From the NCBI GenBank assembly GCA_043753995.1, contig JAYUVP010000249.1, forward strand, positions 39,684-103,683: DNA of 64,000 nucleotides, given 5' to 3'. Within the stretch, counting starts at the first letter, position 1, and each line of letters begins with the position of its first letter. A model generated the notes under the pieces. That model was not told the origin of the DNA, ran no database searches, and saw nothing but the letters and a program-made list of their open reading frames with translations. The DNA comes from Fibrobacterota bacterium. Lineage in GTDB: Bacteria > Fibrobacterota > Fibrobacteria > UBA11236. This document shows, one piece after another, positions 9,347-45,739 of the stretch. The position numbers were made by a program, and so were the translations under genes.

Positions 9347-10777
9347 ATGGGGAAAGAAACCATCGCGGCCCCGGCCACTCCTCCGGGAATGTCGGGGCTG
9401 GCCATAGTCCGGCTTTCCGGACCGGATTGCCCCGCTGTTCTATTACACTGCCTGGGGCGTACTCTCGGAGTTACCGAAGCTCCGGAGTTACCCAAGGCCT
9501 CGCAGAAGCCGGTGCGCCCTCGGCATATGCATTATGGCGAGTTTCGCCATCCCGAAACCGGCGAAACGCTGGACCGGCTCACCTTCGTCTATTATCCCGC
9601 GCCTAAAAGCCCGACCGGCGAGGATGTGCTTGAGCTCTTCCCCCACGGCAATCGCCTGCTGGTCGAAAATATTCTGCATGCCTTATTGACCTTACCGGGC
9701 TTACGCTTGGCCGGCCCCGGCGAATTCACGCGCCGCGCCTGCGAGAATGGCAAGCTCGATTTGGTGCAAGCCGAAGGCCTCATGGCCTTGGTTCATGCCC
9801 AGTCGCAGGCCGCCTTGCGACATGCCGGACGCGTGCTGGACGGCGCCCTCTCGAAGCGCTTCTTGGCTTTACGGGGCAAACTGATTGACTTGCTGGTTCA
9901 CCTCGAACTCGATGTCGACTTCGCGGAAGAAGAGGCCGATCCCGACTATGCCTCTTGGCGTCCCCGCGTGCAAGACGCGCTCGCCGACATCGAAGCCTTG
10001 CTCCGCAGCCATGATCGCGGCGCCCGCCTGGAGCGCATCCCCCGCGTGGTCTTGCTGGGCGCGCCTAATGCGGGCAAAAGCAGTTTGATCAATGCCTTGC
10101 TGCGCGAGGAAAGGCTTTTGGTTTCCGACATTCCCGGTACGACGCGTGACTTCGTCGAAGTGCCTTTGCATTTGCCTTCGGGGCTAGTGCATTTGGTCGA
10201 CACCGCGGGGCTGGGCGAAGCTGTCGATAGCCTGGACGCTCGCGCCCAGGGAAAAACACGCGAGCAAGCCGACAAGGCCGATTTGCGACTCTGGGTTGCC
10301 AATGGTAACGCACCGGTCGATGCGCTTGCGTGGGCGGGAGATCCGCTCCAGACACTTGCAGGGGACGTCACTCCAACCATACGGGTGCGCACGCGCCGTG
10401 ATCAGCCTGGCTTTTGCTCTGAGGTCGGAGCCCTAGCCGTCGCCAATACCACCGGCGACGGTTTGCCTGAATTGATGGAAGCCCTGGAGACGATTTTGTT
10501 TGCGCCCGCCAAGGTTGTCAGATTAAAAGCTCCCGATGGGCAAGCAGGGGAAGGGGCCGACGAGGTTTTCCTCACCACGGAGCGTCAGCGAGAGGCCTTG
10601 GAAAAGGCCGCCGCGAATTTGCGCGCGGCATTGAATCAGCTCGATGGCCAACCCGCCATTGAAATTCTCGCCTTCGAAGCGCGCGAGGCCGTGCAGGCAC
10701 TGCGCGAATTGCTGGGCGAGGTGAGCGCTGACGATGTGCTCAATCGCTTGTTCTCAGGGTTTTGCATCGGGAAATAG
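9347..10777 (+). CDS. mnmE: tRNA modification GTPase MnmE (TrmE)
   Basis: 476 aa. G-domain motifs (GAPNAGKSSL, DTAGL). Ends with the MnmE-specific C-terminal FCIGK. Confidence 0.9.
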   Translation: MGKETIAAPATPPGMSGLAIVRLSGPDCPAVLLHCLGRTLGVTEAPELPKASQKPVRPRHMHYGEFRHPETGETLDRLTFVYYPAPKSPTGEDVLELFPHGNRLLVENILHALLTLPGLRLAGPGEFTRRACENGKLDLVQAEGLMALVHAQSQAALRHAGRVLDGALSKRFLALRGKLIDLLVHLELDVDFAEEEADPDYASWRPRVQDALADIEALLRSHDRGARLERIPRVVLLGAPNAGKSSLINALLREERLLVSDIPGTTRDFVEVPLHLPSGLVHLVDTAGLGEAVDSLDARAQGKTREQADKADLRLWVANGNAPVDALAWAGDPLQTLAGDVTPTIRVRTRRDQPGFCSEVGALAVANTTGDGLPELMEALETILFAPAKVVRLKAPDGQAGEGADEVFLTTERQREALEKAAANLRAALNQLDGQPAIEILAFEAREAVQALRELLGEVSADDVLNRLFSGFCIGK

Positions 10778-10837
10778 TCCGATCGCAGTAGACCCAAACA
10801 TATGGGCGAGGGAAAATTCCGCGCTGGGTTCCGGGCC

Positions 10838-11758
10838 CTAATGGGTTGAAGCTGGCGTCGAAGTGCGTCCCGCTTGGGCTCGCTTCAATTGTCGCAGCAT
10901 ATAGTGCAAGGATTCCGAGGAATAGCCGTGCAGCAGCAATCGGAAACCTGCGCGTAAAGTGGAAAGCGGCAACATGGGGTGGCGATTGTTCACTCGCCAC
11001 AAACGCGAATCGTCGTCTAGCAAAGTCGAGACATATATTCCAATTGTTTCGTCGAGTTGCAGGGAATTCGAAGCCCGCCAAAAGTCATTGTCGGAAAGTA
11101 GGAACTGGAAAATCGGAGTATAAATCTCGATGGCGGTTTCGACGTCCATGAAATTATGCCAGGAGTCGGGCAATTCTTCGAATTCGAAAGGCCCGTCGGT
11201 AATGGCTTGCAAGTTTATCGTCGTGACGGCATGCAAAACCTTGCCTTCTTTCTGCAAGGTTTGATTCAGGCGAATGATGAAATTGAAGAGATTGATATCA
11301 TGAAACAGGAAAAGGTGGTCTTTCACATCGGCCAGTCGCTTGGGCTTGAGTGGGTTGAGTGGAATATCGACCCCGCTATTGTCTCGAATGAATTCGAGAA
11401 TTTCGGAACCAATGTGGAAATGCCTCATGATCAGCAAATTCGCTTCGCGGCTGGCAAAATACCGGAGTCCCAAATAAATGAGGTGATGCAAAAGCCGTGA
11501 CGACTTGAAAGCAGAAGGAAAGGGTGTTTTCAGCACCATAATTAGGCAAATCAAGGTGCGCATGATGGGCCGGAGCAGGGGCAAAAGGAATTGCCGAGTC
11601 TTGGATTGCAGCCCAAACAGCAAGGCGCCCTTCACTTCGGGATCTATGGGCGTAGAATTGTCGAGAAACAAAGCTTGGGTAGGCAGCGGATCTTCCGGAT
11701 CATGCTTCAGCCCGTTGAAATAACTTTGATACCGGGTATGGCGCGTATTTTCAGTCAT
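10838..11758 (-). CDS. Hypothetical protein, last gene of the lipid-tailoring operon
   Basis: 306-aa ORF whose start overlaps the stop of the upstream KASIII-fusion gene at 11758. No recognisable motifs. Noticeably more AT-rich codon usage than its neighbours. Confidence 0.4.
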   Translation of the reverse strand: MTENTRHTRYQSYFNGLKHDPEDPLPTQALFLDNSTPIDPEVKGALLFGLQSKTRQFLLPLLRPIMRTLICLIMVLKTPFPSAFKSSRLLHHLIYLGLRYFASREANLLIMRHFHIGSEILEFIRDNSGVDIPLNPLKPKRLADVKDHLFLFHDINLFNFIIRLNQTLQKEGKVLHAVTTINLQAITDGPFEFEELPDSWHNFMDVETAIEIYTPIFQFLLSDNDFWRASNSLQLDETIGIYVSTLLDDDSRLWRVNNRHPMLPLSTLRAGFRLLLHGYSSESLHYMLRQLKRAQAGRTSTPASTH

Positions 11759-13635
11759 TAGTAATTGCCTATTTCTTCGAGTTGCAACCGGTAGAGGCGT
11801 GCCGTGGTTTTGGCTGCTTTTACGATTTCATCGGCAAGCATTGGGGTCAAGGGTAAAAGTTTCATCGCCGTATGCATTTCTTCGAGGTGATGCTCGTCAT
11901 TGTGACCGTGATAGAGAAGAAAGGACACCGCATCGGAACTCAGTTGAAGGGCCCTTTGGATTTTCTCGCCCCAAGCCTTGGCCAGGTTTTTTCCAAGTCC
12001 TTCGATGATAAAAACCGAGCCTAGCATGTGAAAAGGATTTTCCCTTCCGGCCTGGTGAAACATATAAGCGGAAAAGGCCTCGGATCCAATATTCTTGGGA
12101 TGGGAAAGTATGTCCCCGCGTTCGCCCCCGGAGGCGACATAGTTGGCTTCGAGCATGCGGAAATCGCGGTGCTCATCCCAGGAATGCTTGAGATAGAGAG
12201 AGCGCAATTCAAAATGCTCCGTGGTGATATTCGAGGCCGCTTTGGAAATCCAGCGACTGCCCTCCATGACTTGCTGGCGCAGGTTGAGAAGCAATTCCCT
12301 GTAGTCGGATCGGGTTAAGTTTCCGGTCTCGATTTTGTGGATGAGGGATAACTTGCTTAGTCCCAATTCGAAATCCGACCACACCAGGAAGAGGCGACGG
12401 AAAAGGGAGGCCAGTAAATCCTCGCCCGGCTGAAGCGGGATGTCGCTCGGAGTGGCGGATATTTCTTGTTGCGCCGGTAACAATGATTTTTTTTCCGTTG
12501 GCGATTCGCCGACTACGGTCAATAGCATAAAACTGGTGATAAAGCGACCGCTCTCGGGGACTTGGCAAAGGATTTTCTGCCCGGATTGAAGCCGTCCCGA
12601 TTGCCATAGTTCTTCGAGCATGATCAACAGGGAGGCCGCGCCTGTATTGCCCTTGTGATATAGGTTGGTGAACCACTTATGCGCAGGAATGTCGGCCAGG
12701 CATTTCTGCAATAGGTCGACGATTTGATCCTTGAAGACATGCGAGGAATAGTGACAAAGAAACCAGTCGAAATCGGGTTTGAGCTTGCCCTCTTCGATAA
12801 GCGAGAGATAATGCGACACACCCAAGGGGACGATTTTGTCGAGCATGGCGAGATCTTGTCTTAGGGTAAACAGACCTTGCCGAACGGCGTCACCATAATT
12901 CGCCATTTCTCCCGTGGTAACCCGTATGCTTCCGTCTTCGGATTTTTCACCGCCGGCATACATGCAAACATCCAGGCTATCGGCATGTGATTTCAAGTCT
13001 ATCCACTCGATACGGAGGGATAGGCCACTTTCCTTGGGCCGGTCTTGCAGAAGCGCGGCGCCCGCACCATCCGACAACATCCAGCGTAAAAATTCGGTGT
13101 CGAGCGGTATGCGCTTCTCATTCTGAAAGCTGTCTAGTTCTTCGAGTATCGGGGCCCGGAATTGACGGCTGGGAAATTCGCTGCCGCAAACCATGCCGGT
13201 CTTGTGCTTGCCGCAGGCAATGGCGTGATAGGCCCCTTGAAGCGCGGACATGACGCTCGCGCAAACACCTTGAAAAGAGGCGACATCGCAGCAGGCGATC
13301 TTGGCTTCGCCTTGCACCATGCTCGAAAAGCCGGGTACGAAGAGATCGCCTTGGGTGGTGGCGGTGGCCAAATAGTCAATACCCTTGGCGTCGATGGAGG
13401 AGTCTTTGAGGGCGGCGTGAATGGCGAGGGAAGCCATTTGCGCATTGCGATGTGTGGGTTTGCCATTTTCGTCGAGAGCATAATGGCGGGTTTCGATGCG
13501 ATTGAGTTTGAGCACTCGCTTTTTCGCGATCGATGGCTTTCCTCCCACGAGTCCGAGTCGCTTCTCGGCGGCTTCGGAGTCTAGCGCGGGTCCAGGAAGA
13601 AAGGCTCCGAGCGAAGTGATATAAACGGGTCGCAT
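11758..13635 (-). CDS. FabH-like 3-oxoacyl-ACP synthase III (KASIII) N-terminal domain fused to a C-terminal heme-oxygenase-like (TenA/PqqC/CADD-type, putative di-iron oxidase) domain
   Basis: Residues 1-~370 have the KASIII thiolase fold pattern: MRPVYITSLGAFLP, DYLATATTQGD, KIACCDVASFQGVCASVMSALQGA, CHYSSHVFKD. The C-terminal ~230 aa are helical with E/H/D clusters (WDEHRDF, IIEGLG, LLYHGHNDEHHLEE) reminiscent of heme-oxygenase-like di-iron enzymes. This domain assignment is inference. Confidence 0.6.
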   Translation of the reverse strand: MRPVYITSLGAFLPGPALDSEAAEKRLGLVGGKPSIAKKRVLKLNRIETRHYALDENGKPTHRNAQMASLAIHAALKDSSIDAKGIDYLATATTQGDLFVPGFSSMVQGEAKIACCDVASFQGVCASVMSALQGAYHAIACGKHKTGMVCGSEFPSRQFRAPILEELDSFQNEKRIPLDTEFLRWMLSDGAGAALLQDRPKESGLSLRIEWIDLKSHADSLDVCMYAGGEKSEDGSIRVTTGEMANYGDAVRQGLFTLRQDLAMLDKIVPLGVSHYLSLIEEGKLKPDFDWFLCHYSSHVFKDQIVDLLQKCLADIPAHKWFTNLYHKGNTGAASLLIMLEELWQSGRLQSGQKILCQVPESGRFITSFMLLTVVGESPTEKKSLLPAQQEISATPSDIPLQPGEDLLASLFRRLFLVWSDFELGLSKLSLIHKIETGNLTRSDYRELLLNLRQQVMEGSRWISKAASNITTEHFELRSLYLKHSWDEHRDFRMLEANYVASGGERGDILSHPKNIGSEAFSAYMFHQAGRENPFHMLGSVFIIEGLGKNLAKAWGEKIQRALQLSSDAVSFLLYHGHNDEHHLEEMHTAMKLLPLTPMLADEIVKAAKTTARLYRLQLEEIGNY

Positions 13636-13649
13636 GAATGTCCTGAGGT

Positions 13650-14582
13650 TTAGACGGGCGAAGGGGAATGGGCAGGTGCAGGAGCTTGCAAGGAATCGGA
13701 TCGGCGAAAATCGAAAGTTCGATAGCGGCGAACGAAATGCTGTAAGACGAAAATTTTCAAGAAGTAAAAGGCGAGACTAGGCTCATTCAATTGGGGATGG
13801 ATCCAATGACGTAGGCGATCGTGTTCCTTAGGCCATTGCGACCAATGCATGTTGATATTGCGGTGATGGACAAGATGATAACCGTGATTAAAGGTGATGC
13901 GGTTCAGCCAAACGCCGACGAAATTTCGGCTGGAATCATAGGGGTGATGGGGGGCTGTGTGATGATGTTGAAAATAGCCGGTGCCTACCATGGCCAAAAC
14001 GCCGAAGGCTTGCGGCAAGAGTAGGGCATAGGCGGTGGTCTTCGCGTCGATTCGCCAGAGATAAAGGGTCAAGGTAAGCCAAGCGGCGATTTGCAGCGAC
14101 CAAAAAAGGCCGAGCCGAAATCCCGAGGTGTTCCGAGGTTTCGCCATCAAGGAAAGCCAATAAAGGAAGCTTGCCCGAAAGTAAACCCTGACTCCATGCG
14201 CGAGATAACGAAAGAACTGCAAAAAATTATTGTGATGGGAATAACGGTAGGTGTAAGTGTAATCGTCGCTGCTGTTGGCATAACGGTGGTGATTGGCATT
14301 GTGCGTCGCTTTCCAGGCATAGCAGCCATCAAAGCGGTAGAGGGTGAAGAGGAATTCGATGGCGCGATTGGCCAACCTGGAGCGGAAAAAGGGCCAATGG
14401 CCGTGACAATGCTGAATGCAGCCGACCACATAGGTGATTAAAGCGGTGAGCACCGAAAGCCACAGGCGCGGCCCTATCAGGAAGTGCCAAGTCACGAGTA
14501 GCGGATAAACAGCCAAGACGCCAAGGCAGCGAAGGTCTTGTTTGTTTCTAAGGCCTAGAACGGAAGAAGACGCCTGCGGCAT
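13650..14582 (-). CDS. Membrane fatty-acid desaturase family protein (FA_desaturase-type histidine boxes)
   Basis: Multiple TM segments plus three His boxes: HCHGH, HNANHH, HGYHLVHH. Confidence 0.7.
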   Translation of the reverse strand: MPQASSSVLGLRNKQDLRCLGVLAVYPLLVTWHFLIGPRLWLSVLTALITYVVGCIQHCHGHWPFFRSRLANRAIEFLFTLYRFDGCYAWKATHNANHHRYANSSDDYTYTYRYSHHNNFLQFFRYLAHGVRVYFRASFLYWLSLMAKPRNTSGFRLGLFWSLQIAAWLTLTLYLWRIDAKTTAYALLLPQAFGVLAMVGTGYFQHHHTAPHHPYDSSRNFVGVWLNRITFNHGYHLVHHRNINMHWSQWPKEHDRLRHWIHPQLNEPSLAFYFLKIFVLQHFVRRYRTFDFRRSDSLQAPAPAHSPSPV

Positions 14583-14585
14583 GAC

Positions 14586-15350
14586 TTATTCCGCCGGGCT
14601 ATGCGCGCGACGACGGTAGCCCGAGGCCAGCCAGCGGTCAAGCCAGGGCGTCCAGAAGCCGAAATTGCGTGTCGCCTTGCGGTGGTGGGTGCCATGGCGC
14701 CAATTGTTTTCCAGAAAACTCGCGCCTTGAGTGTGGGTTGGCCAGGAGAAATTGGCATGCCCGAAAGTATTGGCAGTCATGCTGATAGCCGGCCAAAGCA
14801 TGATGGCGAGGATGTCGAAGTCATGCACAAGCATGATGAGAATCATGGTTCCGCTATAGAGTAAGGCCTCGAACCAGTGAAAGCTAAGGCTACTGAAAGG
14901 CGTAGTGGTCACGCTGTAATGATGCACGGAATGCACACGACGAAAAAGGAAAGGTCTATGCAATAACCAATGGCAGGAAAAGAAATAAAGCTCATTCCAA
15001 GCGGCGAAGAGAAGCAAGTCGCCGAGTGCGCGTACTAGGGAAAAGTCTTTCCATAAAATGGTGAGCATTCCATGCTCTTCCAATTTGAGCGCTAAAACCG
15101 CGAAGAAACTGAGAAAAAGCATGGCACTCATGGACTTCCGAATTTCATGGCCTATTTGACCCGCCTTGATTGGGCGGTTGTCGATATAAAATCCCAGTTT
15201 CCGTTTGATCAGAACGTCACGAATGAAAAGGAAAGATATGGCGGACAAGGAAAAATAAGCCACCAAAAAACCCGCAATATGCCAGGCATAGTATTCGGGC
15301 CAACTCAGACTATGCGACAGCGTTTGCAGGGCGCCGAAGTCGAGCATCAC
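14586..15350 (-). CDS. Fatty acid hydroxylase / sterol desaturase superfamily protein (paralogue 2)
   Basis: His boxes HWLLH, HSVHH, HGTHH embedded in TM helices. Paralogous to 15347..16117. Stop/start overlap with its neighbours. Confidence 0.7.
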   Translation of the reverse strand: MMLDFGALQTLSHSLSWPEYYAWHIAGFLVAYFSLSAISFLFIRDVLIKRKLGFYIDNRPIKAGQIGHEIRKSMSAMLFLSFFAVLALKLEEHGMLTILWKDFSLVRALGDLLLFAAWNELYFFSCHWLLHRPFLFRRVHSVHHYSVTTTPFSSLSFHWFEALLYSGTMILIMLVHDFDILAIMLWPAISMTANTFGHANFSWPTHTQGASFLENNWRHGTHHRKATRNFGFWTPWLDRWLASGYRRRAHSPAE

Positions 15351-16117
15351 GATTTCTCCAAGGGCTCGTCATAATTGAAGCGGGCCGAACGCGTCCGGAA
15401 AGTTTCGTCGAACCAGGGAAAGGCAAAACCGTAATTGCCCTTGATATGGGTGTGATGCAAGGTGTGTCGACGGCAAGAAGAGAAAAGATGATTCAAGGCG
15501 AGCTTGGGAAAAACGGCATAATTCATATGGCCGATATTGTTCATGAAAAGACTCAAAGCCGGGAAGAGAATGATGGCTCCCATGCTCAGAGGCGCGAAGG
15601 CCATATAGGTCACCATGACGCTGCTCAGCAAGACGGCTTCGAACCAGTGAAAGCTATAGGTCGAAAAGGGAGTGGGCACAACCGAAAGATGGTGATGCCG
15701 ATGCACATGTCGGTAAAACCAGGGTAGGTGCAAGAGATAATGCGAGGCATAGAAATGAACTTCATTCCATAAGGTGAGCAGAATGAGATCGAGGACTAGA
15801 CGCCAGGGTGAATGAATCCAATCGATGTGAATCAGGCCCAGCCGCTGCAAGCCCAAGGTCAATCCACCATAAGCGCCGAAGACGAGAATGGAGATTAAGG
15901 AAAGTCTCACTTCACGCGTGATTTGCCGGGGTGGAATGGGGCGTGAATCGATGACGCGGCCAATTTTGAAAGTCGGAAGGACTTTTTGGGTGAGCTGAAG
16001 CGTGATAAAAGCCAGGGCGAAGTAAATGAAAGCAAAACCGAGTGCAACTAAGGCGGCAATTTGCCAGAGCCTAAGTTCGAACATGAAATCGCGTAGTCCG
16101 ATTTGCAAGGCCGTCAT
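15347..16117 (-). CDS. Fatty acid hydroxylase / sterol desaturase superfamily protein (paralogue 1)
   Basis: His boxes HYLLH, HVHRHHH, HTLHHTH. Shared motif FSTYSFHWFEAVLLS vs FSSLSFHWFEALLYS in paralogue 2. Confidence 0.7.
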   Translation of the reverse strand: MTALQIGLRDFMFELRLWQIAALVALGFAFIYFALAFITLQLTQKVLPTFKIGRVIDSRPIPPRQITREVRLSLISILVFGAYGGLTLGLQRLGLIHIDWIHSPWRLVLDLILLTLWNEVHFYASHYLLHLPWFYRHVHRHHHLSVVPTPFSTYSFHWFEAVLLSSVMVTYMAFAPLSMGAIILFPALSLFMNNIGHMNYAVFPKLALNHLFSSCRRHTLHHTHIKGNYGFAFPWFDETFRTRSARFNYDEPLEKS

Positions 16118-16356
16118 GCTGCGCTTTCTAGGCGAAGTATCACATCGCCAATGGTGGCGGCGGCCATCAATTCTTCCAAAGGGATTTCAGCCAGGCCGCT
16201 TTGATGCAGTTCATACTCCAATTCGAGAGCGCTTAAAGAGTCGAGCCCTAAATCCTTTTTCAAGGACATATCATGGCTCAGGGATTCGACTGGGCGATGG
16301 GAGACTCGGCTGATGGCTTGCATCACCTTGATTTCAATAGCAGGCATACGGGTCAA
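16114..16356 (-). CDS. Acyl carrier protein
   Basis: 80 aa with the phosphopantetheine attachment motif DLGLDSL. Start overlaps the KAS stop and its stop overlaps the hydroxylase start (ATGA). Confidence 0.75.
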   Translation of the reverse strand: MTRMPAIEIKVMQAISRVSHRPVESLSHDMSLKKDLGLDSLSALELEYELHQSGLAEIPLEELMAAATIGDVILRLESAA

Positions 16357-17567
16357 TCTTGATGACGCGAAAAAAGGAGGGAAACATTATTCGAGCCGAA
16401 ACCGAAAGAATTCTTGAGGATGTTTCGCAATGGCGCATGTTGATTCGCCGATTCAGTCGCTGTCATACCTTCCTGAAGGTGAAAGGCTTGCGGCAATTGC
16501 TGCTTCATCAAGGCTTGGACGCATAGAATGGATTCGAGGATACCACAAGCCCCAAGACTATGTCCGATTTGGTTTTTTGGAGCCACCACGAGCTTGCCGC
16601 CGAGTTCCTTGCCAAATACCGAATGCATGCCGAGATATTCGACTTCATCATTCTTCAGGGTACCGGTGCCATGCGCGCAAATGGCATCGATATCTTTGGC
16701 CTCTATTCCGGCGCAAGCTAAGGCTTTGTGCATGACGGCAATAATATCGCTCGCATCGGGCTTCGGTGCGACTGGATGATATGCACCTGAATTCTGTGCC
16801 ACGCCGGAAAGCTTTGCCAAGATCGGTGCGCCACGCCTGCGCGCCGACTCTGGTGATTCAAGTATAAGGAAGCCAGCTCCCTCGGCGAGTATAAAGCCGT
16901 CGCGCTCCGGGTGAAAGGAGCGTCCCGGCTGCAGGGGATCGCGTTGGGCGCTGAGCACTTTCAATTGCTTATAAGCATGATAATTGAAGGGTGAAAGCGG
17001 GGCTTCTGCGCCGCCCACCAAAGCGATGTCCCATTGCCCAGTAGCGATTTTCCAAAAGCCTTCAGCAAGGGCATTTGCGCTTGAGGAGCAGGCCGTAGAG
17101 ATGCAGAGGTTCGGACCGGTAATGCCGGTTTGTTGGGCTATCCATGACCCCAGGGCACTGGGCATCACCTTGGGGACGGTGAAGGGATGTATCGCGCGCA
17201 TGCCTTCTTGCAAGGCTTTGGCGATCATTTCTTCATGAAAGTCCAGACCACCGAGACCACTGCCCAGGCAAATGCCGATGCGATAGTCGGAAGTGTCGCC
17301 GGACAAGCCCGCTTGATCCAAAGCCTCGCGGGCAGCGATGATACCTAAGTGTACGCAGCGAGCAGAGCGAGCGAGAATTTCGGGTGGTAGTCGCTTGGCG
17401 ACATCGATATGGACCTTGCCAACCAAAACCGGATCGATAGCAAAACCGTCCTGAAATGAGAATTGGGCTTTGCCGGAAGACATTTCATCCCAAAAAGCAT
17501 CTACTCCGCAGGCGCGGCCGACGAGCGCACCCAAGCCGGTGATGACAGGAAAGGTTACCATCAACAA
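16353..17567 (-). CDS. Beta-ketoacyl-ACP synthase (FabF/FabB-like KAS I/II)
   Basis: 404 aa. Active-site Cys motif ISTACSSSANALAEG. His motifs (AHGTGT, IGHSLGA) in the expected order. Confidence 0.85.
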   Translation of the reverse strand: MLMVTFPVITGLGALVGRACGVDAFWDEMSSGKAQFSFQDGFAIDPVLVGKVHIDVAKRLPPEILARSARCVHLGIIAAREALDQAGLSGDTSDYRIGICLGSGLGGLDFHEEMIAKALQEGMRAIHPFTVPKVMPSALGSWIAQQTGITGPNLCISTACSSSANALAEGFWKIATGQWDIALVGGAEAPLSPFNYHAYKQLKVLSAQRDPLQPGRSFHPERDGFILAEGAGFLILESPESARRRGAPILAKLSGVAQNSGAYHPVAPKPDASDIIAVMHKALACAGIEAKDIDAICAHGTGTLKNDEVEYLGMHSVFGKELGGKLVVAPKNQIGHSLGACGILESILCVQALMKQQLPQAFHLQEGMTATESANQHAPLRNILKNSFGFGSNNVSLLFSRHQD

Positions 17568-17576
17568 CCCCTCAAA

Positions 17577-18158
17577 TCATTGCTCTTGCTCGGGCATATC
17601 GAATAAAAAACCGATCTGAAAAAACATCTCTAAGTTGGCTGACGCCCCACGCCTAACAAACGAGTTATTGTTCGATCCCATGGGAATAAAAATCTCGATA
17701 GCATTTCCGGCGGCCATCTTAAAGTGACCCGCCTGAAAATGGAATTTGCCCCCTGGTGCAATGAGGGCGTCCTCGGATTTGAAGGAACCATAGTAGTCGC
17801 GCTCACGATAATACCGATATCCGAATTCGATTTCAGGAGTAAAGCCCCAGCGGTAGCCCTGCCAAACGCTATAGCCAAAATAGATGGACGGGCTAAGGTA
17901 TTTGCTTGTCTTCGACTGGGTCTGAATTTGAATCAAATTGATAATTCCCGGCTTTAAACCGAATTCAAAGCGATCCACATGTCTTTCCAAAAAAAGTTCG
18001 ATGGGAAAAATGCCAACCGTGCCTCCGCTATAGCTACGGTCAACCTGGGATTCTCCAGCGGAGGACAAAATGAAACCGACTTGATTATCATAGGCGCTTG
18101 CTCCAGAGTGAAACAAGGGCAAGGTGCTGAGCAGGAATAAAAACCGCGGTAGGAACAT
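17577..18158 (-). CDS. Hypothetical secreted protein (Tyr/Gly-rich, possibly beta-rich), first gene of the lipid operon
   Basis: The ORF extends to 18251, but MFLPRFLFLLSTLPLFHSGASA at 18158 is a plausible signal peptide and avoids overlap with the divergent ferredoxin. No family assignment. Confidence 0.4.
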   Translation of the reverse strand: MFLPRFLFLLSTLPLFHSGASAYDNQVGFILSSAGESQVDRSYSGGTVGIFPIELFLERHVDRFEFGLKPGIINLIQIQTQSKTSKYLSPSIYFGYSVWQGYRWGFTPEIEFGYRYYRERDYYGSFKSEDALIAPGGKFHFQAGHFKMAAGNAIEIFIPMGSNNNSFVRRGASANLEMFFQIGFLFDMPEQEQ

Positions 18159-18183
18159 GGGGTGCAAAGTAATATTCCCAATC

Positions 18184-18483
18184 ATGAGCCAGCCTTCGTC
18201 ATCCCATGATTCTTGTCGCCAAAAGCCGGGTCTTTTCAAACCCATTGTCAATCATTCGCGCTGTGAAGGCAAAAGCGATTGCGTGGTGGTCTGTCCGGTG
18301 AATGTTTTCGAAGTGCGCCGCATCGAAGATTCTGATTTCGCGGCACTAGGCATACTGGCCAAGGTCAAAGTCATGGTCCATGGCAGAAAAACGGCCTATA
18401 CGCCCCGCGCCGAGGCTTGCGAAGCCTGCGGCCTATGCGTCACGGCTTGTCCGGAAAAGGCGATTCGCCTGATGAAGGTTTAA
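18184..18483 (+). CDS. 2x[4Fe-4S] ferredoxin
   Basis: Two Cys clusters: CEGKSDCVVVCP and CEACGLCVTACP. Divergently transcribed from the lipid operon. A start at MSQPSS (18184) is preferred over the listed 18124. Confidence 0.65.
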   Translation: MSQPSSSHDSCRQKPGLFKPIVNHSRCEGKSDCVVVCPVNVFEVRRIEDSDFAALGILAKVKVMVHGRKTAYTPRAEACEACGLCVTACPEKAIRLMKV

Positions 18484-18489: not shown

Positions 18490-21400
18490 TTAATTCGGCG
18501 GGGTTCCCCATTTGAACCAGGCATTCAAGGTGGCCAGTTCGGTGGGAGTGAGTTGCACACCCGAAGCGGGCATATATCCTGCGGATAGGAATGGACGATT
18601 GATGCGATCGTAAACCTTGCTTCGCGTCAAGGAGTCGGCGACAGTCGTGGAATCGCAAACCGCGGTGGCGTTCACCTTCCCGGGCCCGTGGCATGTCAGG
18701 CAGTAGGTGTTTAGAACGGTGGAAACGCCGGAGTTAAAAGGCGGCAAAACCGTATTGCGAGCCAAGGCATGAATAGGCCCGTCCGTGGCGGTGGCCGTGA
18801 TGGTTGTCGTGCCGGTGATCATTTTCAAGACTTGAACTTGGGTGGAGCTCACCACTTTCAAAACCGCAGGATTGCTGCTGGTCAAGGCATAGGTCTTGAG
18901 CGTGGTGGAATCTGGCGCGAAAACCGCTGTGCTTTGCACCGTCGTTCCCACCACGAGCCGTGGCAGGGTTAGGGCGATTCCCGTAGCCACCACATTCCCC
19001 ACGGTTACATTGAAATTCGCTGTTTTCGCCCCGTCGGTCGAAGTCACGCGCCATACCGAATTCCCCGCCGCTGTTCCCGATAATTGAGTTGTTCCTACCA
19101 GAGTGGCACCTGTACCTGACACCAAGGAAAGGGTATAGCCCTTATTTGTCGCCGATGACGGCGTCCAGGATAAAGTTGGCGCCTTGGTACTGCCAACAAA
19201 AAGGCTGAGGTTAGCCGCGCTCACGCTCTGCACCGGGACCGGGCCCACGACCACGGTGAAGGTGTCCTTGACCGTGGGATTTTGCACCGAAGTCGCGACA
19301 ATCTTCACCGAGCCCAATGCGGATGCCGTCACCTTGCCTCCGGGCAAAACCGTGACGCCCAAGCCCAAGGAGGTGAGGGTATAGCTCTTACTCGTCGCCT
19401 CCTCAGGAAAGGCGCCTACCTGTGGAATCACGGTGTCGCCGACTTGAAAGGAAGTGTCTGCTCCGACCAAGCTGTCGACGGGCCACGGAATCACGGTCAC
19501 TTTAAAGGACTTGGATTTCGCTCCTTCTTCGGTGGTCAATCCGACATTGGCCGATCCCACGTAGGCGCCATGAATTCGAATACCCGTGGGCGTGGTCACT
19601 GTGGTATCGAAGGAAACCAAGCTATAGCCCTTATTGCTCGCATCCCCCGGCGCAAAAGTCACCTTGGGGAATTTCGTGTCGCCAAGCCTCACCGTGTCTT
19701 CCGCCACCGTCACGTTTTGCAAGGGGACGAAATGGGCATTGAGCCAGCCCAGTAAAATGCCCAGCTGGCTGGGAGTCAAGTCGCCTTCAGCCGGCATGCG
19801 ATCCTTGTCGGTTTTCGCGAGTTGCAAGCGCCGTAGCGATTCCGCGCCCTTGATCAAGAAAACGCTGGAGTCTTGCAAGTTGAAAGTAATGGTGGGGCTA
19901 TGGCATTTGCCGCATTTCTCGGTGGTGATGGGCTTAACATGCGCGTCGAATTGCGGCGTCACGGCCATAGCGGTGAAGGTGGCCGTCTTGTCTCCATCTT
20001 CGGCGCGCACCGTGATTTTTGCCGAGCCCAATACCCCGGCCACCAGGCGATTGCCGACCGGTTTGATGGCGGCGCTATTGTCGCTTTCCAAGGTGTAATT
20101 CTTATTGGTGGCGTCATTCGGTAAGAAGACCACTCTGGGCGTGATGGTGTCGCCGAGGGCGATGGCGGTGTCCTTGGCAGAGAGGCTAAGCACCGTTTTC
20201 ACATTGCGGCCCAACCAGAGCAGCATCAAATCGAGATCGCGCTTGTCCATGGTGGTGTCGGCAGGCATATGCGCCGTGTTTCCGAAAGGCAAGGACAATC
20301 GCGCGAGGGCCTTGCTTCCACGGCCGACGAGTACAGCCGAGTCCTGCAGATTGAAGGTAATGGTGGGGCTATGGCATTTGCCACACCACTTCTTGGAAAT
20401 GGGTTGTATATCGGCAAAGGTTGGGCCTCGTACGGTCACCGTAAAGGTGTCCTTTGCTCCGCCGGCAGTTGCGGTAACCGTCACCTGCGCCGAGCCTTCG
20501 GCGCGCAAGGCGAGGCGCTTGCCGACGACACGGACTCGGGTGGTATCATCGCTTGCTATTTCAAATTCGCGCTCGGTGGCATTGGAAGGCATGAAGACGA
20601 TGTTCGGTGTAAGGGTGTCATAAAGCAAACCCGTGGTGTCCACCGCGTCCAGCGCAGTCGGGGCGATGCTCTTGTCGCTAATCGAGAATGAGAAGGTGGC
20701 CTTGGCGCTGCCACGGTTGGCCTGCACCGTCACCTGGGTGCTACCTGCGGCGAGAGCGACGAGGCGAAGCCCGCTCAGCACCTTGGCCTTGGTGGTGTCC
20801 GCTACGATCAATTGCACGCCCTTGTCGGTGGCGCCGTCAGGCTCCAAGGTCGGCGTGACTGTCACGGTATCACCGGTTTTGGCGCCGAGATTCGATACCG
20901 AGATGGAGCTAAGCAAGATCACCTTTTCGGTGATGGTCACTGAGAAAGACATACGGGCCGTGTCGCGATGGGCTCGCACTTCGATAGTGACCTTGCCCGT
21001 ATCACGGCATAGCACGGCATGGCCGCGCGTTCCCGCGCGCAAGGTGTCGACGGCATGCAGGCTGTATTCCTTGTCGGCGGCGGTGTCGGGACGCACGGTC
21101 ACCCGGGCATTCACCGTGTCTCCCGCCTGGCAGTCCAGATCTTCGGCTGTCAGTCGCGTGCGCGCCCTGTCTACCTGCGCCAAGCTGTCTTGATGCGCGA
21201 CACTATCGGCGAGGATGACGCTGTCCTTGCGGGCCTTGACGTCCACCACGGCGCTGTCGCGCTTCTGTCCTTTTTCGGCATAGTCGAAGCGCTTTTCAAA
21301 GGCCACGGCATTGTCTTTCAGCCCCGTGATGACGGCCGAAAAATTGGGCGACACGTTTTCGGGCAAATCGAATTGCACCGTGCTCTGGCCCGGCTTCAAA

Positions 21401-21597
21401 ACAAAGGTTTTGCTGAACAGGGTTTTGCCCGTGTCGAGTCCCTTAGGATAAAGCGAAACCTTCACGCTGTCGAATTTCCCCACCAGAGTGGAATCGAGCT
21501 GGAATTGCAATTCGGTTTTTTCCTTGGGATTGCTCAGGCAGGAAAATAGCCCGAGCAAGACAAAGCCGAGAAGCGAAAGGGAAAGCAGGGTTTTCAT
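18490..21597 (-). CDS. Giant surface lipoprotein with multiple Big_2-type Ig-like domains and three embedded CxxCH (PSCyt1-like cytochrome c) modules
   Basis: True start MKTLLSLSLLGFVLLGLFSC (lipobox) at 21597 overlaps the stop of the upstream gene (TAATG). Repeated Big_2-like segments (for example TLESDNSAAIKPVGNRLVAGVLGSAKITV). WCGKCHSPTITFNLQDS occurs twice, plus CLTCHGPG near the C-terminus, each followed ~40 aa later by MP...W, matching the PSCyt1 pattern. Confidence 0.6.
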   Translation of the reverse strand: MKTLLSLSLLGFVLLGLFSCLSNPKEKTELQFQLDSTLVGKFDSVKVSLYPKGLDTGKTLFSKTFVLKPGQSTVQFDLPENVSPNFSAVITGLKDNAVAFEKRFDYAEKGQKRDSAVVDVKARKDSVILADSVAHQDSLAQVDRARTRLTAEDLDCQAGDTVNARVTVRPDTAADKEYSLHAVDTLRAGTRGHAVLCRDTGKVTIEVRAHRDTARMSFSVTITEKVILLSSISVSNLGAKTGDTVTVTPTLEPDGATDKGVQLIVADTTKAKVLSGLRLVALAAGSTQVTVQANRGSAKATFSFSISDKSIAPTALDAVDTTGLLYDTLTPNIVFMPSNATEREFEIASDDTTRVRVVGKRLALRAEGSAQVTVTATAGGAKDTFTVTVRGPTFADIQPISKKWCGKCHSPTITFNLQDSAVLVGRGSKALARLSLPFGNTAHMPADTTMDKRDLDLMLLWLGRNVKTVLSLSAKDTAIALGDTITPRVVFLPNDATNKNYTLESDNSAAIKPVGNRLVAGVLGSAKITVRAEDGDKTATFTAMAVTPQFDAHVKPITTEKCGKCHSPTITFNLQDSSVFLIKGAESLRRLQLAKTDKDRMPAEGDLTPSQLGILLGWLNAHFVPLQNVTVAEDTVRLGDTKFPKVTFAPGDASNKGYSLVSFDTTVTTPTGIRIHGAYVGSANVGLTTEEGAKSKSFKVTVIPWPVDSLVGADTSFQVGDTVIPQVGAFPEEATSKSYTLTSLGLGVTVLPGGKVTASALGSVKIVATSVQNPTVKDTFTVVVGPVPVQSVSAANLSLFVGSTKAPTLSWTPSSATNKGYTLSLVSGTGATLVGTTQLSGTAAGNSVWRVTSTDGAKTANFNVTVGNVVATGIALTLPRLVVGTTVQSTAVFAPDSTTLKTYALTSSNPAVLKVVSSTQVQVLKMITGTTTITATATDGPIHALARNTVLPPFNSGVSTVLNTYCLTCHGPGKVNATAVCDSTTVADSLTRSKVYDRINRPFLSAGYMPASGVQLTPTELATLNAWFKWGTPPN

Positions 21598-22418
21598 TAT
21601 TTCACCTTGGTCACGACGGTCGTCGTTTGCGTGCCGGGATCGCTCATGAGCATAATGGTGGTGATGCCGACTAGAGTCACCGCAGCTGCACCTCCCGCCA
21701 CCCACAGCCAGGTTTTATTGCCTTTGCCGTCGCCGGAGGTCGCAGCGGCGTTACCCCCCGCCTGAGATGCCGGATCCGAGGTCTTGGCACCTGCCGACCC
21801 AATAACCGCATTAGCTCCCGTGTCAGGCCTCACCTCGATGAGATTACGCCCGGTCGAGTCAATGGGATAGCCGAAAGTCTTCAAGTTCTTGCGTACGCGC
21901 TCGCGCTCGGCCACGCTATCGCTGTCGCTGGCGGTGCGATCATAACGCTTGCGCACCTCACGAAACATGTCCAGAATGGCATCACCCACTTCGAGGTCTT
22001 CCAAATCTTGGCGCGGATCGAGCTTAAGCATTTGATACAGAAAAGATTCTGCCTTGCGACGCGTTCCCATGTCGGCGCCATACACCACACCGAGGTATTT
22101 ATAGATGAAAATGCTGTCTTCCTTGTCGCGAATGCGGCGATCGCGGCGCATGTTTTCCAAAAGGGCGATGAGTTGATCGAAGTCGCCGCCATGATAAAGC
22201 TCTTCCACCGTTTTTTTATCGAGCACGGCTGATTTTTTCAACTTGGTCGCCGAGGTTTTCGCGGGCGACGCAGCGGGGGTGGCCTTGGTCGTGTTCGTTG
22301 AGTTCGCGGTCGTAGTTGCGGGCGTGGCTTTTTCGGGTTGCGGCGTTGCCGACCATGAAGTCATGACCCCAAAAACCGTAAGCGCGAGAAACCCGGCCAA
22401 GGTGCTGAAAAACCTCAT
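21597..22418 (-). CDS. Hypothetical secreted, C-terminally membrane-anchored protein with TPR-like core (module A small subunit)
   Basis: Signal peptide MRFFSTLAGFLALTVFGVMTSWSA, then a Thr/Ala/Pro-rich linker, a conserved core (DSIFIYKYLGVVYGADMGTRRKAESFLYQMLKLDPRQDLEDL) and a C-terminal TM helix (WLWVAGGAAAVTLVGITTIML). Paralogue of 25268..25936. Confidence 0.5.
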   Translation of the reverse strand: MRFFSTLAGFLALTVFGVMTSWSATPQPEKATPATTTANSTNTTKATPAASPAKTSATKLKKSAVLDKKTVEELYHGGDFDQLIALLENMRRDRRIRDKEDSIFIYKYLGVVYGADMGTRRKAESFLYQMLKLDPRQDLEDLEVGDAILDMFREVRKRYDRTASDSDSVAERERVRKNLKTFGYPIDSTGRNLIEVRPDTGANAVIGSAGAKTSDPASQAGGNAAATSGDGKGNKTWLWVAGGAAAVTLVGITTIMLMSDPGTQTTTVVTKVK

Positions 22419-25267: not shown

Positions 25268-25936
25268 ATGTCTAGTCCTATTTCCCCCGTTTCTGTCCTG
25301 CTCTTTGCCCTTGGCTTGCCCGTATTCGGTGCAGCTCCCCAGCCATCCTCGGCGACGACTTCGGCACCGATGGCGAAAACCACCTCGTCCCCGAGTGTCT
25401 TAGATACCGCGGTGATTCATGGCGCCTATGCCGACGGCGATTTCGAAAAGGTGACGAGTTCGCTAGAGCCCATACTCGCCGCGAAAACCGTTTTGCCCAA
25501 GGCCGACAGCATTTTTCTTTTTCGCCACCTGGGCGTGATTTATGCCAAAGACCCAGGCACGCGCGAAAAGGGGAAATACTGCTTTCGCAAATTGCTCGAT
25601 GTCGATCCGCAAGCGCAAATTCTCGATCTCTATGCCACCGATGAGATCTATCAGGTCTTTCGCACCGTCCAGGCCGAATGGGACTTGTCTCATCCCAATG
25701 CCCAAAATCAAGCCGCCTCCTCCTCCAATCGCGTCTCCGCCGCTCCTGCTCCAGTCATGGAGCCCGCCGCTCCCCCTGCGGCCAAGCCCGCGAAGACGCA
25801 ATCCTGGAAACGCTATGCCGCCGTGGGCGGAGCCGTTGCTGTCACCGCCGGGTTAACCACCTGGTATTTGCTTTCTTCCCAAAAAGCCGACAACAAAACC
25901 GTGACTGTGGAAGTCGATCCCGCCCAGCCGAAATGA
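25268..25936 (+). CDS. Hypothetical secreted, C-terminally membrane-anchored protein with TPR-like core (module B small subunit)
   Basis: Signal peptide MSSPISPVSVLLFALGLPVFGAAP. Core DSIFLFRHLGVIYAKDPGTREKGKYCFRKLLDVDPQAQILDL is homologous to 21597..22418. C-terminal TM helix (YAAVGGAVAVTAGLTTWYLL). Confidence 0.5.
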   Translation: MSSPISPVSVLLFALGLPVFGAAPQPSSATTSAPMAKTTSSPSVLDTAVIHGAYADGDFEKVTSSLEPILAAKTVLPKADSIFLFRHLGVIYAKDPGTREKGKYCFRKLLDVDPQAQILDLYATDEIYQVFRTVQAEWDLSHPNAQNQAASSSNRVSAAPAPVMEPAAPPAAKPAKTQSWKRYAAVGGAVAVTAGLTTWYLLSSQKADNKTVTVEVDPAQPK

Positions 25937-28900
25937 ATAACATGAAAAAACTCTGTTTGCCCCAGTTTTTACGCCGCGCTGGCCTGCTCACGGGCATGGC
26001 TTTCGGTTTTGCCTTGCTGGCTTCTTTCGCCTTATTGCCCACCGCCTGCACCAGCACCGAGGGTGGCACTGATTTCGAAATTGCCTATGTCGATCGAGAT
26101 AATCTCACGTCTTTCGACTCCATTGTCGTGCTTCTCAATAAGGAGGGCTCCGAAAAGCCGGACACCCTTTTCAAGGGCAAGCTCACCGACAGCACGGTCT
26201 TGCGTCACTTGAAAGTTCCTGGTAACTTGCAAGGTACGGTGACTATTTCCGTGCAGGGCTTCAATCATGGCGAACTCGCCTTGGAACGCCATACCACGGT
26301 CGACGCGGACAAGCAAACCGTCGCCGGCACCGATTTGAAGCACAGCTCCCAAGGTCGCATTCGCTTCGCCGAACCTTCCCTGAAAATGAAAATCGGCGAT
26401 ACCGCTGCCATTCCAGCATTGGATATCGAGCCCTCCGAATGGAAAGACAAGGAAGTCACCTTCAGCTTTCAGGAAATCAAGGTGCTCGCTCTCATCGCCA
26501 AGAACAAGCTCGTGGGTTTAGCCCGCGGATCGGCGCGCGTGGTGGCCACCCTCGTCGGCGATAGCACCGTCACCGACACCCTTTTCGTGCAAGTCGTTGA
26601 TCCCGAGGCCGATAAAATCACCGTCCGCGTCTCGCCTGACACCTTGCGTCTCACCGCATTGGGCGCCTCGCTTTCCCTCAATGCCGAAACAACGCCTCTC
26701 TACTCGCCTCTCACCTGGAGTAGCGCCGATGATACTGTGGCCACCGTCGATGCCAATGGCTTGGTGCGTGGTTTGAAGGTCGGCAAGACTTGGGTTCGTG
26801 CCCGTTCTACTACCGACAGCTCCGGCGCGGACTCGTCTTGGGTCGTCGTATCGGGAGCCGTGCCAGTGGAAAGTGTCCGTTTCGCCCGCTCCACCCTCAG
26901 CTTATTCGAGGGCGGCGCGGCCGACAGCGTCAGCGTTCAAGTGCTCCCGACCGACGCCAATCCCGCGACTGGCCTGCGTCTCATCGGCAAGGCCGTGACG
27001 CTCAATGGCCGCCGCTTCATTCCCGTCGATACGGGATCCGCCATCGCCATCGCTTATTCCCTGGTGGACACGACCAAGACCGACACCTTGCGCATCAGCG
27101 TGAAGCAAGCCTTGACCATTCAATCCTTCCGGATTAAGCCGGACACCTTGCGTCTCTATCTCGGCGGGCCGGATAGCGCTTTCTCCATAGTTGTCGATCC
27201 TGCCTCGGCGGGCCTGGACGCGGTATGGCATTTGGCCAAGCTTGGCATTGCCAGAGTTTCCGATTCTGGCTTGGTGAAAGCCATTGGCGAAGGCCAGGTT
27301 TTAGTCTTGGCCCAAGCCCTCGCCGACAGTAGCAAGCGCGATACCTCCCTGATTCAAGTCGTGCGCGATATGCCCAAGCTCTCCGTGGGCAATGCCGTGG
27401 TGGCCAGCCCGGAATCCACGATCGATTTCGTGCCCAAGGTCGAGCAAGAATTCGGCGGGGTGACTCGGTTCTGGTGGGATCTCGATGGCAATGGCACTTG
27501 GGACGACAGCAGCGATGGCCTTAAAAACCTGAGCCGCAAATATGACGCCGTTGGCGAAACCACGACGCATTTCAAGGTGCGCGATGCCGAAGGCAATGAG
27601 GGAATGGCCGATCGCAAGGTGACCATTACCAAGGGGCCCCATGTAGTCATCCTGGTTCCTCCGGACGGCTTTGTCACCAATAAGAAAACCGTCGAGGTGA
27701 ATTGGGAAGTCGACCATGTCAAGCAAGACAAGCAAACTCAAGAGCAATTGACCCAAGAGGGCCCCAAGACTTTGGTGCGCTCCGCCAAGGATGCCAATGG
27801 CAATGAAACCGTCATTTCCATCACGGTATTTCTTGATACCAAGGCGCCCGAGCGACCCCTGGTGAGTTCGGTGTCGCCCACCAATAGCAAAACGCCGAAC
27901 TTCAGCTGGCGCAGCGGCGGCGGAAAAGGTGCCGGACTCTATCGGTATCAAATCGACGCTGAACCCGGCGCGAACCAAAGCGAAACCGGCGACACCACCT
28001 TGACCTGGCCCGCCGATTTGAATGCGGGCAGCCACACCTTGTTTGTACAGGAGCGCGACACAGCGGGCAATTGGTCGGCTAGCGGCAGCGCCAAGGTCAT
28101 CATCGACTTGACCGCCCCGCCAGCGCCGACGGTAAGTGCCGTCAGCGGCCCGAATAGCACGAATCTCCAGGTGACCTTTGTCTGGAAAGGCGCCGAGGAA
28201 GGTGCCCTGCGCTATCGCTATCAAATCGATAAGGAAAAATTCGAAGGCGGTGCCGTCGAGGTAGGGGACACCACGGTGACGGTGATCTTGACCGAGGGGC
28301 ATCATGCCTTTTATTTGCAGCAGCTCGACAGCGCCGGCAATGCTTCGACGCCGGGCAAGGCTTCGGTGAATGTGGATGTGACGGCCCCCAATAAGCCTTC
28401 CCTGCGTTCGCTCACGGGCGTCTGGTCCACGAATGGCAAACCCACTTGGATTTGGAAAACGGGTGGCGGCGCCGGCAATGGCAAATTCCGCACTCGCCTC
28501 GACACCGCCGACTTGAGCGCTAAGAGCTTTTTCACGGATACGTCCTTCACCCCCGCAGCTGCCATCGGCGAAGGCCCGCATCGACTCTTCGTGCAAGAAA
28601 TGGACAGCGTGGGCAATGTCTCACCTGCCGAATCTCTCACCATCACCGTGGACACCCAGGGGCCTTCAGCTCCGATTTGCCTTGAGCCCGCCGACAATGC
28701 CTGGGTCAATACGCAAAAGCCGACCTGGAAATGGAAAGGCGGCGGGGGCGGTGACGGACGTTATTATGCCTTCATCGCGGCAGCTTATACTCCTGACACC
28801 TCGACCCGGGTCACTGACACCACCCTTACTCCGCCGGCCAATCTCCCCGAAGGCCAAAAAATTCTCGGAGTGAAGGCCTATGATGCCGCAGGCAATGTCT

Positions 28901-43828: not shown

Positions 43829-44048
43829 CTCTTTTCTTGATTTTGAAGTTGCTCTTGATCGGGTCAATTTGGCGGGATTCAGGCTTGACCCGTTTCGGCG
43901 AAGAGAAATTTTCAATACCAAGCCAATCGTGAGTCGATGGCATCGTAACCGCTTGCGCAGCAATTGGTTATTAAGTTATTTTCAAGCAATCAGATCTCAA
44001 TTATCGTCTCATTCCCATAGTTACGCCTTCTATGCAGGAGAGCCCACA

Positions 44049-45618: not shown

Positions 45619-45739
45619 CTCGCCCTGGTTGTGCTCTTTCGGATGTCGCCAAGCGGATTTATTAGTTAAGTGCAAGTAGTCAGGTTTTATTTATCACGCG
45701 CGCTAATTTTTGTATGTCCGAAATGCAGGAGAGCCCACA

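Follow-up and report, generated by a model that had tools for sequence, protein, structure and literature searches.

A predicted lipoprotein of uncultured Fibrobacterota with three class I cytochrome c modules on a string of immunoglobulin-like domains

A 64,000-nucleotide stretch of DNA from a Fibrobacterota bacterium (GenBank assembly GCA_043753995.1, contig JAYUVP010000249.1, positions 39,684 to 103,683 of the forward strand), hereafter the window, contains a gene at 18490–21597 (−) whose 1035-residue product is strongly predicted to be a lipoprotein built from folded modules on a string. Three of the modules are, judged by sequence profiles and predicted fold, divergent class I cytochrome c domains of the His/Met monohaem type, and they alternate with eight immunoglobulin-like (Ig-like) Big_2 domains. 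The probable role of the protein, to judge from its sequence, is that of an electron carrier tethered at the envelope of the cell. It belongs to an uncharacterised family that has so far been seen only in uncultured Fibrobacterota. The parts (lipobox, Big_2 and class I or PSCyt1-like cytochrome c) are known; their combination has not previously been studied. The first-pass annotation of the sequence had described three cytochrome-c-type modules interleaved with Big_2 repeats in a lipobox-anchored protein of 1035 residues, and this description is borne out by the Pfam matches, the AlphaFold domain map and the conservation of the lipobox Cys in orthologues.

Lipoprotein Gene and Domain Architecture

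The open reading frame (ORF) has 1035 codons from an ATG (MKTLL), with the stop codon counted in the coordinates, and its assignment draws on the translation, Pfam, full-length orthologues of 32–57% identity and the AlphaFold map. A signal peptide with lipobox, MKTLLSLSLLGFVLLGLFSC, occupies residues 1–20 (21538–21597, −) in the sequence and in the orthologue alignment. The signal peptide is closed by L-F-S-C20, Cys20 being the predicted lipidation site. This Cys is invariant across the alignment of six orthologues, and in all seven of the relatives on genome contigs a Cys follows the hydrophobic stretch (as WSC, SSC or SAC). Position −2 of the lipobox is F or W, unlike the textbook lipobox. 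The residue at +2 after Cys20 is not Asp, and acidic residues 4–8 positions past the lipobox Cys are common to the orthologues. By the sorting rule of E. coli, which may not hold in Fibrobacterota, a residue other than Asp at +2 favours the outer membrane, while an acidic stretch after the lipobox Cys resembles the surface-export signal of Bacteroidota lipoproteins.

Domain boundaries were taken from a full-length AlphaFold model with a mean predicted local distance difference test score (pLDDT) of 74 and a predicted template modelling score (pTM) of 0.35. The predicted order is an N-terminal β-sandwich, a disordered linker, three Big_2 domains, a cytochrome c module, one Big_2 domain, a second cytochrome c module, four Big_2 domains and a third cytochrome c module at the C-terminus. 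The N-terminal β-sandwich (residues 28–105; 21283–21516, −) has predicted strands within residues 29–105 and a LDSTLVGKFDSV motif that stands out as conserved columns in the orthologue alignment. It is followed by the sole predicted disordered stretch (residues 107–145, pLDDT below 50), which precedes the first Big_2 repeat. Big_2 repeats 1–3 cover residues 148–223, 231–307 and 315–390 (20428–21156, −), with the best Pfam stretch at residues 237–301; repeat 4 covers residues 471–546 (19960–20187, −); and repeats 5–8 cover residues 628–703, 709–785, 791–867 and 873–947 (18757–19716, −). The eight β-sandwiches of ~78 residues each are delimited by AlphaFold and by an alignment of the repeats, which shows a shared GDT..P..F.P..AT.K.Y.L pattern. 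Big_2 (PF02368), the family named in the first-pass annotation, scores above its Pfam threshold (27.5 against 22.8 bits) in three stretches.

Cytochrome c module 1 lies at residues 391–468, with the helical part at 394–466 (20194–20427, −); its CGKCH is encoded at 20371–20385 and its Met444-Pro445 at 20263–20268, and W461 follows. Module 2 lies at residues 548–625, helical at 550–622 (19723–19956, −), with CGKCH at 19900–19914, Met601-Pro602 at 19792–19797 and W618. Module 3, which is C-terminal, lies at residues 952–1035, helical at 956–1031 (18493–18744, −), with CLTCH at 18688–18702, Met1009-Pro1010 at 18568–18573 and W1027. The cytochrome modules are thus spaced by Big_2 domains that the model folds with confidence: a single one separates module 1 from module 2, and four separate module 2 from module 3. 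The unit formed by Big_2 repeat 3 and module 1 is duplicated as Big_2 repeat 4 and module 2, with 43% identity over 149 residues (BLASTP E 9e-42). In Foldseek, the full-length model matched only generic multi-Ig chains, among them Nup210, the GhpA neck, DSCAM, S-layer proteins and adhesion molecules.

Haem-Site Motifs and Their Conservation

The three CxxCH motifs are found at residues 405–409 (CGKCH), 562–566 (CGKCH) and 966–970 (CLTCH), so that the gaps between successive motifs in the 1035 residues are 157 and 404 residues. From the composition of the protein 0.0011 such motifs would be expected, and two or more did not turn up in any of 20,000 shuffles; a chance origin of the three is excluded. 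Six of the ten cysteines of the lipoprotein are within CxxCH. The first-pass annotation had placed a Met-Pro at about 40 residues past each motif and a Trp after it. This is what the translation gives: Met-Pro is found at +39, +39 and +43 from the first Cys of CxxCH (M444, M601 and M1009), and the Trp residues past it are W461, W618 and W1027, the last counted by hand from the translation.

The same annotation had also reported two identical internal copies around CGKCH and a C-terminal CLTCHGPG. The latter is present, as the CLTCH of module 3 runs on into it. The 17-mer WCGKCHSPTITFNLQDS does not occur twice; it is present once, and the second copy reads KCGKCHSPTITFNLQDS, starting with K, which leaves the 16-mer CGKCHSPTITFNLQDS as the stretch common to modules 1 and 2. 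The DNA copies of this 16-mer differ at 6 of 48 bases, all of them synonymous, and an identical peptide in spite of these differences indicates purifying selection. Recent gene conversion as the origin of the 16 identical residues is ruled out by the same 6/48 differences and by the conservation of the stretch in orthologues.

The alignment of six proteins keeps the lipobox Cys, the three CxxCH motifs and the three Met-Pro pairs without exception. The analysis was extended to 36–42 aligned modules, drawn from up to 19 relatives with 29–57% identity to the lipoprotein, in which the pairwise identity of modules is 20–70%. Among 36 modules from 13 proteins the invariant residues are C, C, H, D, R, M and P, and in the set of 42 modules they are C, C, H, D, S, M and P, with R, F and W kept in at least 90%. 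The first-pass annotation had named a lack of CxxCH conservation in orthologues as one of two findings that would refute its reading; the motif is invariant in all orthologues and in all of the 36–42 modules, and so is Met-Pro.

Module Identity: Class I Cytochrome c and the PSCyt1 Question

Cytochrome_CBB3 (PF13442) matches the whole protein at 36.9 bits against a cutoff of 27, with the best stretch at residues 961–1027. It is also the best Pfam family for each of the three single modules, where it covers nearly the whole profile, and the family most often matched among the 36 modules of the relatives (21 modules, best E 1.1e-8; PF00034 is matched by 9). When the module profile was compared with PDB sequences, the top match was the C-terminal haem domain of CcoP (9g83_v, E 1.3e-6), followed by the cytochrome subunit of fructose dehydrogenase and by cytochromes c-552, c6, c-551 and c-553. 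The three alignments examined are all with CcoP subunits; in them CxxCH falls on CxxCH and the Met-Pro of the module on the MP of the CcoP chain itself, and in CcoP the Met ligand of the haem comes from this MP. Module 2 was modelled with AlphaFold from 42 sequences (pLDDT 93.7, pTM 0.83); the model is made up of four helices, and CxxCH comes where the first of them (helix 3–15) ends. Foldseek of the module model against the PDB returned no significant match. Taken together, these results point to divergent class I, His/Met-type monohaem cytochrome c domains, for which the sequence evidence is solid and the evidence from the predicted fold modest.

Such domains share with known class I monohaem cytochromes c (the CcoP haem domains, c6, c-551, c-552 and PccH) the CxxCH near the N-terminal helix, the distal Met-Pro and, as predicted, an all-helical domain of ~75 residues. 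They differ in context, as the known proteins are free-standing or subunits of respiratory enzymes whereas the lipoprotein embeds three copies among Ig domains, and in the divergence of the two internal modules (13–15 bits on PF13442).

The first-pass annotation had labelled the modules PSCyt1. As a Pfam assignment the label fails: PF07635 (threshold 22 bits) matches neither the whole protein at E ≤ 1 nor any of the three modules or of the 36 family modules at E ≤ 10, although the speed filters of HMMER may hide very weak matches, and PF13442 is the best model instead. PSCyt1 is usually partnered with PSCyt2 (DUF1549) and PSD1 (DUF1553), which is not a formal criterion. Pfam and family scans of the lipoprotein found neither of these two, nor a carbohydrate-binding module or a signalling output domain. 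As a statement of kinship, the label stands. The best match of the module profile outside the lipoprotein family is P0040, a protein with six PSCyt1 domains (254 bits), and another relative, P0049, has three (158.7 bits). With hhalign, the module profile aligns to P0049 at 98.2% (E 3.3e-14, 36% identity) and to P0040 at 96.9%, compared with 96.8% for P0044, a protein with PF13442 only. Among the 43 nearest relatives outside the family, PSCyt1 is found in 16 and PF13442 in all 43.

The lipoprotein modules and the PSCyt1 repeat proteins have in common the pattern F..[DN]I.PI....C..CH...DS...R...MP...L..W. They differ in the distance from CxxCH to Met, which is 56 residues in the first module of P0040 and 39–43 in the lipoprotein, and this deletion of ~17 residues explains why the PSCyt1 model fails on the modules. 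They differ also in host, Planctomycetota against Fibrobacterota, and in the PSCyt2 and PSD1 partner domains, which the lipoprotein lacks. On this profile evidence, the modules can fairly be called a branch of class I cytochrome c that is PSCyt1-like and shortened, and their kinship with PSCyt1 is real at the level of sequence. To our knowledge, PSCyt1 is a very common domain without biochemical characterisation. The modules of 75–80 residues, with their confident predicted fold, are handy test objects for haem binding and redox potential in PSCyt1-like domains.

Relatives and Distribution

A search of 5.8 billion proteins returned only five full-length homologues (32–57% identity), none of them informatively named; the remaining matches cover the Ig repeats only. 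Seven loci were found by a scan of one genome per GTDB species, all in metagenome-assembled genomes (MAGs) labelled Fibrobacterota, Fibrobacteres or Fibrobacteria. A profile built from 18 modules and searched against 1.84 billion cluster representatives added ~13 family members of 525–1150 residues with two or three modules, past which the scores fall to generic multi-domain cytochromes.

The number of modules per relative varies from two to four, locus L008 having two. In the Fibrobacteria MAG of locus L010 the string is split over adjacent genes, one at 9899–12001 that encodes 700 residues with three cytochrome modules and a second at about 12000–13450 with Big_2 repeats and its own C-terminal cytochrome module. 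In L009 a frame break at about 12640–12700 precedes the last Big_2 and cytochrome module, and the last module continues intact in another frame; the break may stem from the assembly or be a true frameshift. In all these loci, including L008, L009 and L010, the polypeptide ends in a cytochrome module.

Two proteins from the representative search that are unrelated to the lipoprotein family and uncharacterised, P0045 (1283 residues) and P0046 (1197 residues), also have class I cytochrome c modules interleaved with Ig-like domains, in their case fn3, Big_7 or Kre9_KNH. P0045 has five cytochrome modules at a regular spacing of ~295 residues, and P0046 is similar. The principle is therefore not unique to the lipoprotein family, and cytochromes on a string of Ig or fn3 domains may be a wider, unstudied architecture.

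Haem Attachment and Maturation

Further genes of the window and of a related locus bear on whether haem is attached. Two tandem paralogues in the window, at 43809–45542 (+) and 45710–47251 (+), are 80% identical, and each has two CxxCH at a distance of 78 residues. Both score ~150 bits over the full profile of NCBIfam TIGR03806 (SO2930 family dihaem c-type cytochrome), the cutoff being 313 bits. Their C-termini (...GVYLVSVGTVQVRLNYLP) look like what we take to be a sorting tail of the type IX secretion system (T9SS). In locus L004 a CcdA-type gene (DsbD_TM, 156.7 bits) and a TlpA/redoxin-like gene, together at 14892–16136 (−), are located 2–3 kb downstream of the orthologue, beside a DUF3570 gene. 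These two genes may provide periplasmic thiol reduction that is usable for cytochrome maturation though not specific to it, and they are a hint at best. Together with the conservation of the modules, the SO2930-like paralogues and the CcdA and TlpA-like genes favour haem attachment, indirectly.

Proposed Function and Competing Explanations

By analogy with PgcA, the likeliest role of the lipoprotein is that of an outer-membrane relay of "haems on a string" in which the spacers are folded Ig domains, a reading to which we give an even chance. The polypeptide would be exported by the Sec pathway, after which haem c would be attached to the three apo-domains in the periplasm. Each CxxCH would serve for covalent attachment and supply the proximal His, and the Met-Pro, which in alignments falls on the distal Met ligand of cytochromes with solved structures, would complete the site. 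Lipidation at Cys20 would anchor the protein in the outer membrane, probably facing outward, as an extended chain with the haems one and four Ig domains apart. At such separations direct tunnelling between haems would be out of reach, and the lipoprotein would therefore not be a wire. The low-spin His/Met haem domains would rather be tethered one-electron carriers, and collisions, domain to domain or protein to protein, would move electrons between the envelope and partners outside it. The partners could be acceptors, soluble or mineral, or enzymes that degrade polysaccharides oxidatively; in the latter case, the lipoprotein would be relevant to biomass-degradation research. The membrane protein of 273 residues encoded by the translationally coupled gene upstream (see below) would be a likely partner in anchoring or assembly.

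Several points weigh against such a relay. With a pTM of 0.35, the full-length model gives no reliable prediction of how the domains are placed relative to one another, and spacers that are folded in the model, rather than flexible linkers, leave it uncertain whether the haem domains could come together. Scored singly, the modules stay below the PF13442 cutoff of 27 bits (13.3, 15.2 and 25.1 bits for modules 1, 2 and 3). The case for surface exposure consists of the lipobox, the acidic residues after its Cys and the usual habit of Big_2 proteins. A scan for the WWD motif of CcsA, CcmC and CcmF in all ORFs of the window and ten loci (~260 kb) found none. A conserved redox partner gene nearby is ruled out, since neither the ferredoxin gene nor the peptidase U32 gene described below is kept across the loci.

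A bolder form of the idea is a Fibrobacterota-specific redox stalk at the outer surface, which would hold haem domains at fixed heights on a semi-rigid Ig chain and move electrons over tens of nanometres to extracellular partners such as polysaccharide-degrading enzymes, humics or minerals. We consider it unlikely. If true, a phylum known chiefly for the fermentative breakdown of fibre would have a form of extracellular electron transfer of its own, and the PSCyt1-like modules a first demonstrated function.

A tethered cytochrome that faces the periplasm and serves the cell's own respiratory chain, like cytochrome cy or the cytochrome domains of CcoP, seems to us rather unlikely, though several observations speak for it. 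The best sequence matches of the modules are the CcoP haem domains of cbb3 oxidases, c-type cytochromes are known to mature in the periplasm, complex I genes are found in the window, and some uncultured Fibrobacterota have been described as denitrifying degraders (PMC11653725). The geometry speaks against it: by our own estimate, eight Ig-like and three haem domains in extended form exceed the width of a typical periplasm. Moreover, Big_2 strings are typical of surface proteins, with S-layer and adhesion molecules among the fold matches of the full-length model, and no oxidase or reductase gene is conserved beside the lipoprotein gene in the related loci. The wide spacing of the haems, which argues against a wire, would also suit haem modules that work in redox or gas sensing or in the detoxification of peroxide or other reactive oxygen species, with the Ig string as a stalk only. 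In L001 a gene for a large hybrid histidine kinase is indeed directly downstream of the orthologue, but this neighbour is absent from the window and from the other loci, and the lipoprotein itself has no signalling output domain. An invariant His together with Met-Pro predicts a six-coordinate low-spin haem, which as a rule has no open site, and we regard sensing or detoxification as distinctly unlikely.

Lastly, the lipoprotein might be an adhesin or structural surface protein in which the cytochrome-like modules are haem-less and act as helical spacers or binding domains. Most of the protein does consist of Ig-like domains, the internal modules are under the Pfam threshold, and no maturation gene was met in the ~260 kb scanned. 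Yet degenerate modules would not be expected to hold C, C, H, M and P invariant in 36–42 copies that are otherwise so diverged, nor to keep the 16-residue haem-site stretch identical in modules 1 and 2 against the synonymous differences in the DNA, nor to concentrate six of ten cysteines in CxxCH. These conservation data make a haem-less adhesin unlikely, and we hold it to be very improbable.

Comparison with Known Systems

In Geobacter sulfurreducens, the lipoprotein PgcA combines a β-rich domain at the N-terminus with three monohaem domains on unstructured Pro-Thr linkers (PMC10570954). Its domains exchange electrons with each other and reduce metal oxides, and collisions over tens of nanometres have been proposed (PMC10570954). 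The axial ligation of its haems is described as variable (PMC10570954). The lipoprotein resembles PgcA in its lipobox, its N-terminal β domain and its three separate monohaem-type modules arranged as beads on a string. It differs in having folded Big_2 spacers where PgcA has unstructured Pro-Thr linkers, in keeping Met-Pro in all modules where the ligation in PgcA is variable, and in its host phylum; metal reduction has no known link to the lipoprotein. The sequence similarity between its modules and the cytochrome domains of PgcA is marginal, with no homology detectable beyond the superfamily level. The lipoprotein may, by analogy, work like PgcA, yet it falls outside the PgcA family. A design with folded Ig spacers would extend the recent class of "haems on a string" and raises the question how electrons cross the gaps.

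The surface cytochromes MtrC and OmcA are likewise lipid-anchored and alternate β-rich with haem domains. They pack about ten bis-His haems in a continuous chain, whereas the lipoprotein has three predicted His/Met haems separated by Ig domains. PF22113 matches the lipoprotein at 14.7 bits (cutoff 30), locally at CxxCH. A multihaem nanowire is ruled out, as the matches to Cytochrome_C7, Paired_CXXCH, MtrC/MtrF and nanowire_3heme are below threshold and limited to the CxxCH stretch.

The cytochrome domain X183 of Cbp2D from Cellvibrio japonicus reduces lytic polysaccharide monooxygenases (LPMOs) (PMC8981238). X183 in Cbp2D and in TERTU_2913 of Teredinibacter turnerae (PMC8981238, PMC10916295) is comparable to the present modules as a small c-type domain in a large multidomain protein, those proteins being extracellular and from polysaccharide degraders. 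Their structural similarity to the lipoprotein modules is weak, no sequence match was listed, and the lipoprotein is without a carbohydrate-binding module. No LPMO gene was found in the neighbourhood of the lipoprotein gene.

As far as is known, cultured Fibrobacterota are fermentative fibre degraders, and the literature on cytochromes of the phylum gave general context only, with no described c-type cytochrome function. Uncultured Fibrobacterota (UBA5070) have been found among denitrifying lignocellulose degraders (PMC11653725), which fits a respiratory lifestyle in some lineages of the phylum. A conserved lipoprotein with three predicted haem c domains suggests envelope or extracellular redox chemistry in some environmental Fibrobacterota.

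Gene Neighbourhood

Directly upstream of the lipoprotein gene is the gene at 21597–22418 (−), which encodes 273 residues from MRFFST and whose stop codon overlaps the start codon of the lipoprotein gene (TAATG). Its product has a signal peptide, a low-complexity stretch, a conserved helical domain of ~95 residues and a C-terminal transmembrane helix, with no Pfam, NCBIfam or meaningful PDB match. Orthologues are directly upstream of the lipoprotein gene in L001, L004 and L010, that is, in three of the eight related loci checked. A paralogue at 25268–25936 (+), with 28–33% identity to the orthologues in these three loci, comes directly before a gene at 25678–30546 (+) for a 1622-residue protein of Big_13, Big_2 and OmpL47-like domains. 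A small membrane protein is thus paired with a giant Ig-domain protein twice in the window, and large Ig-domain proteins of the envelope are the probable partners of the 273-residue protein.

On the other side, a gene for a ferredoxin with two [4Fe-4S] clusters (18124–18483, +) converges on the 3′ end of the lipoprotein gene, the two stop codons being separated by only 6 bases; none of the related loci has a counterpart of this ferredoxin gene. A divergent peptidase U32 gene is common to the window and L001 only, and in the clade of L005–L009 genes of fatty-acid oxidation and the tricarboxylic acid (TCA) cycle are found nearby instead. Farther away, a complex I (nuo-type) block at 50652–61000 (−), which includes two Proton_antipo_M subunits, fits a respiratory chain.

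Other Features of the Window

Three further features were noted in the window. A 674-residue protein encoded at 3328–5352 (+) matches eCIS_core (PF13699, 70 bits); no other contractile-injection genes were seen nearby. An ORF of 1420 residues at 32803–37065 (+) contains a hydrophobic stretch close to the N-terminus (GLRLAWLGLFFVFATSL) and matches no family of Pfam or NCBIfam. A lipid-modification cluster at 10838–17567 (−) comprises genes for a DUF6999 protein, a fusion of KAS III-like and Haem_oxygenas_2 domains, a fatty-acid desaturase, two FA_hydroxylase proteins, an acyl carrier protein (PP-binding) and a ketoacyl synthase, and its product may be an unusual lipid or polyketide-like compound.

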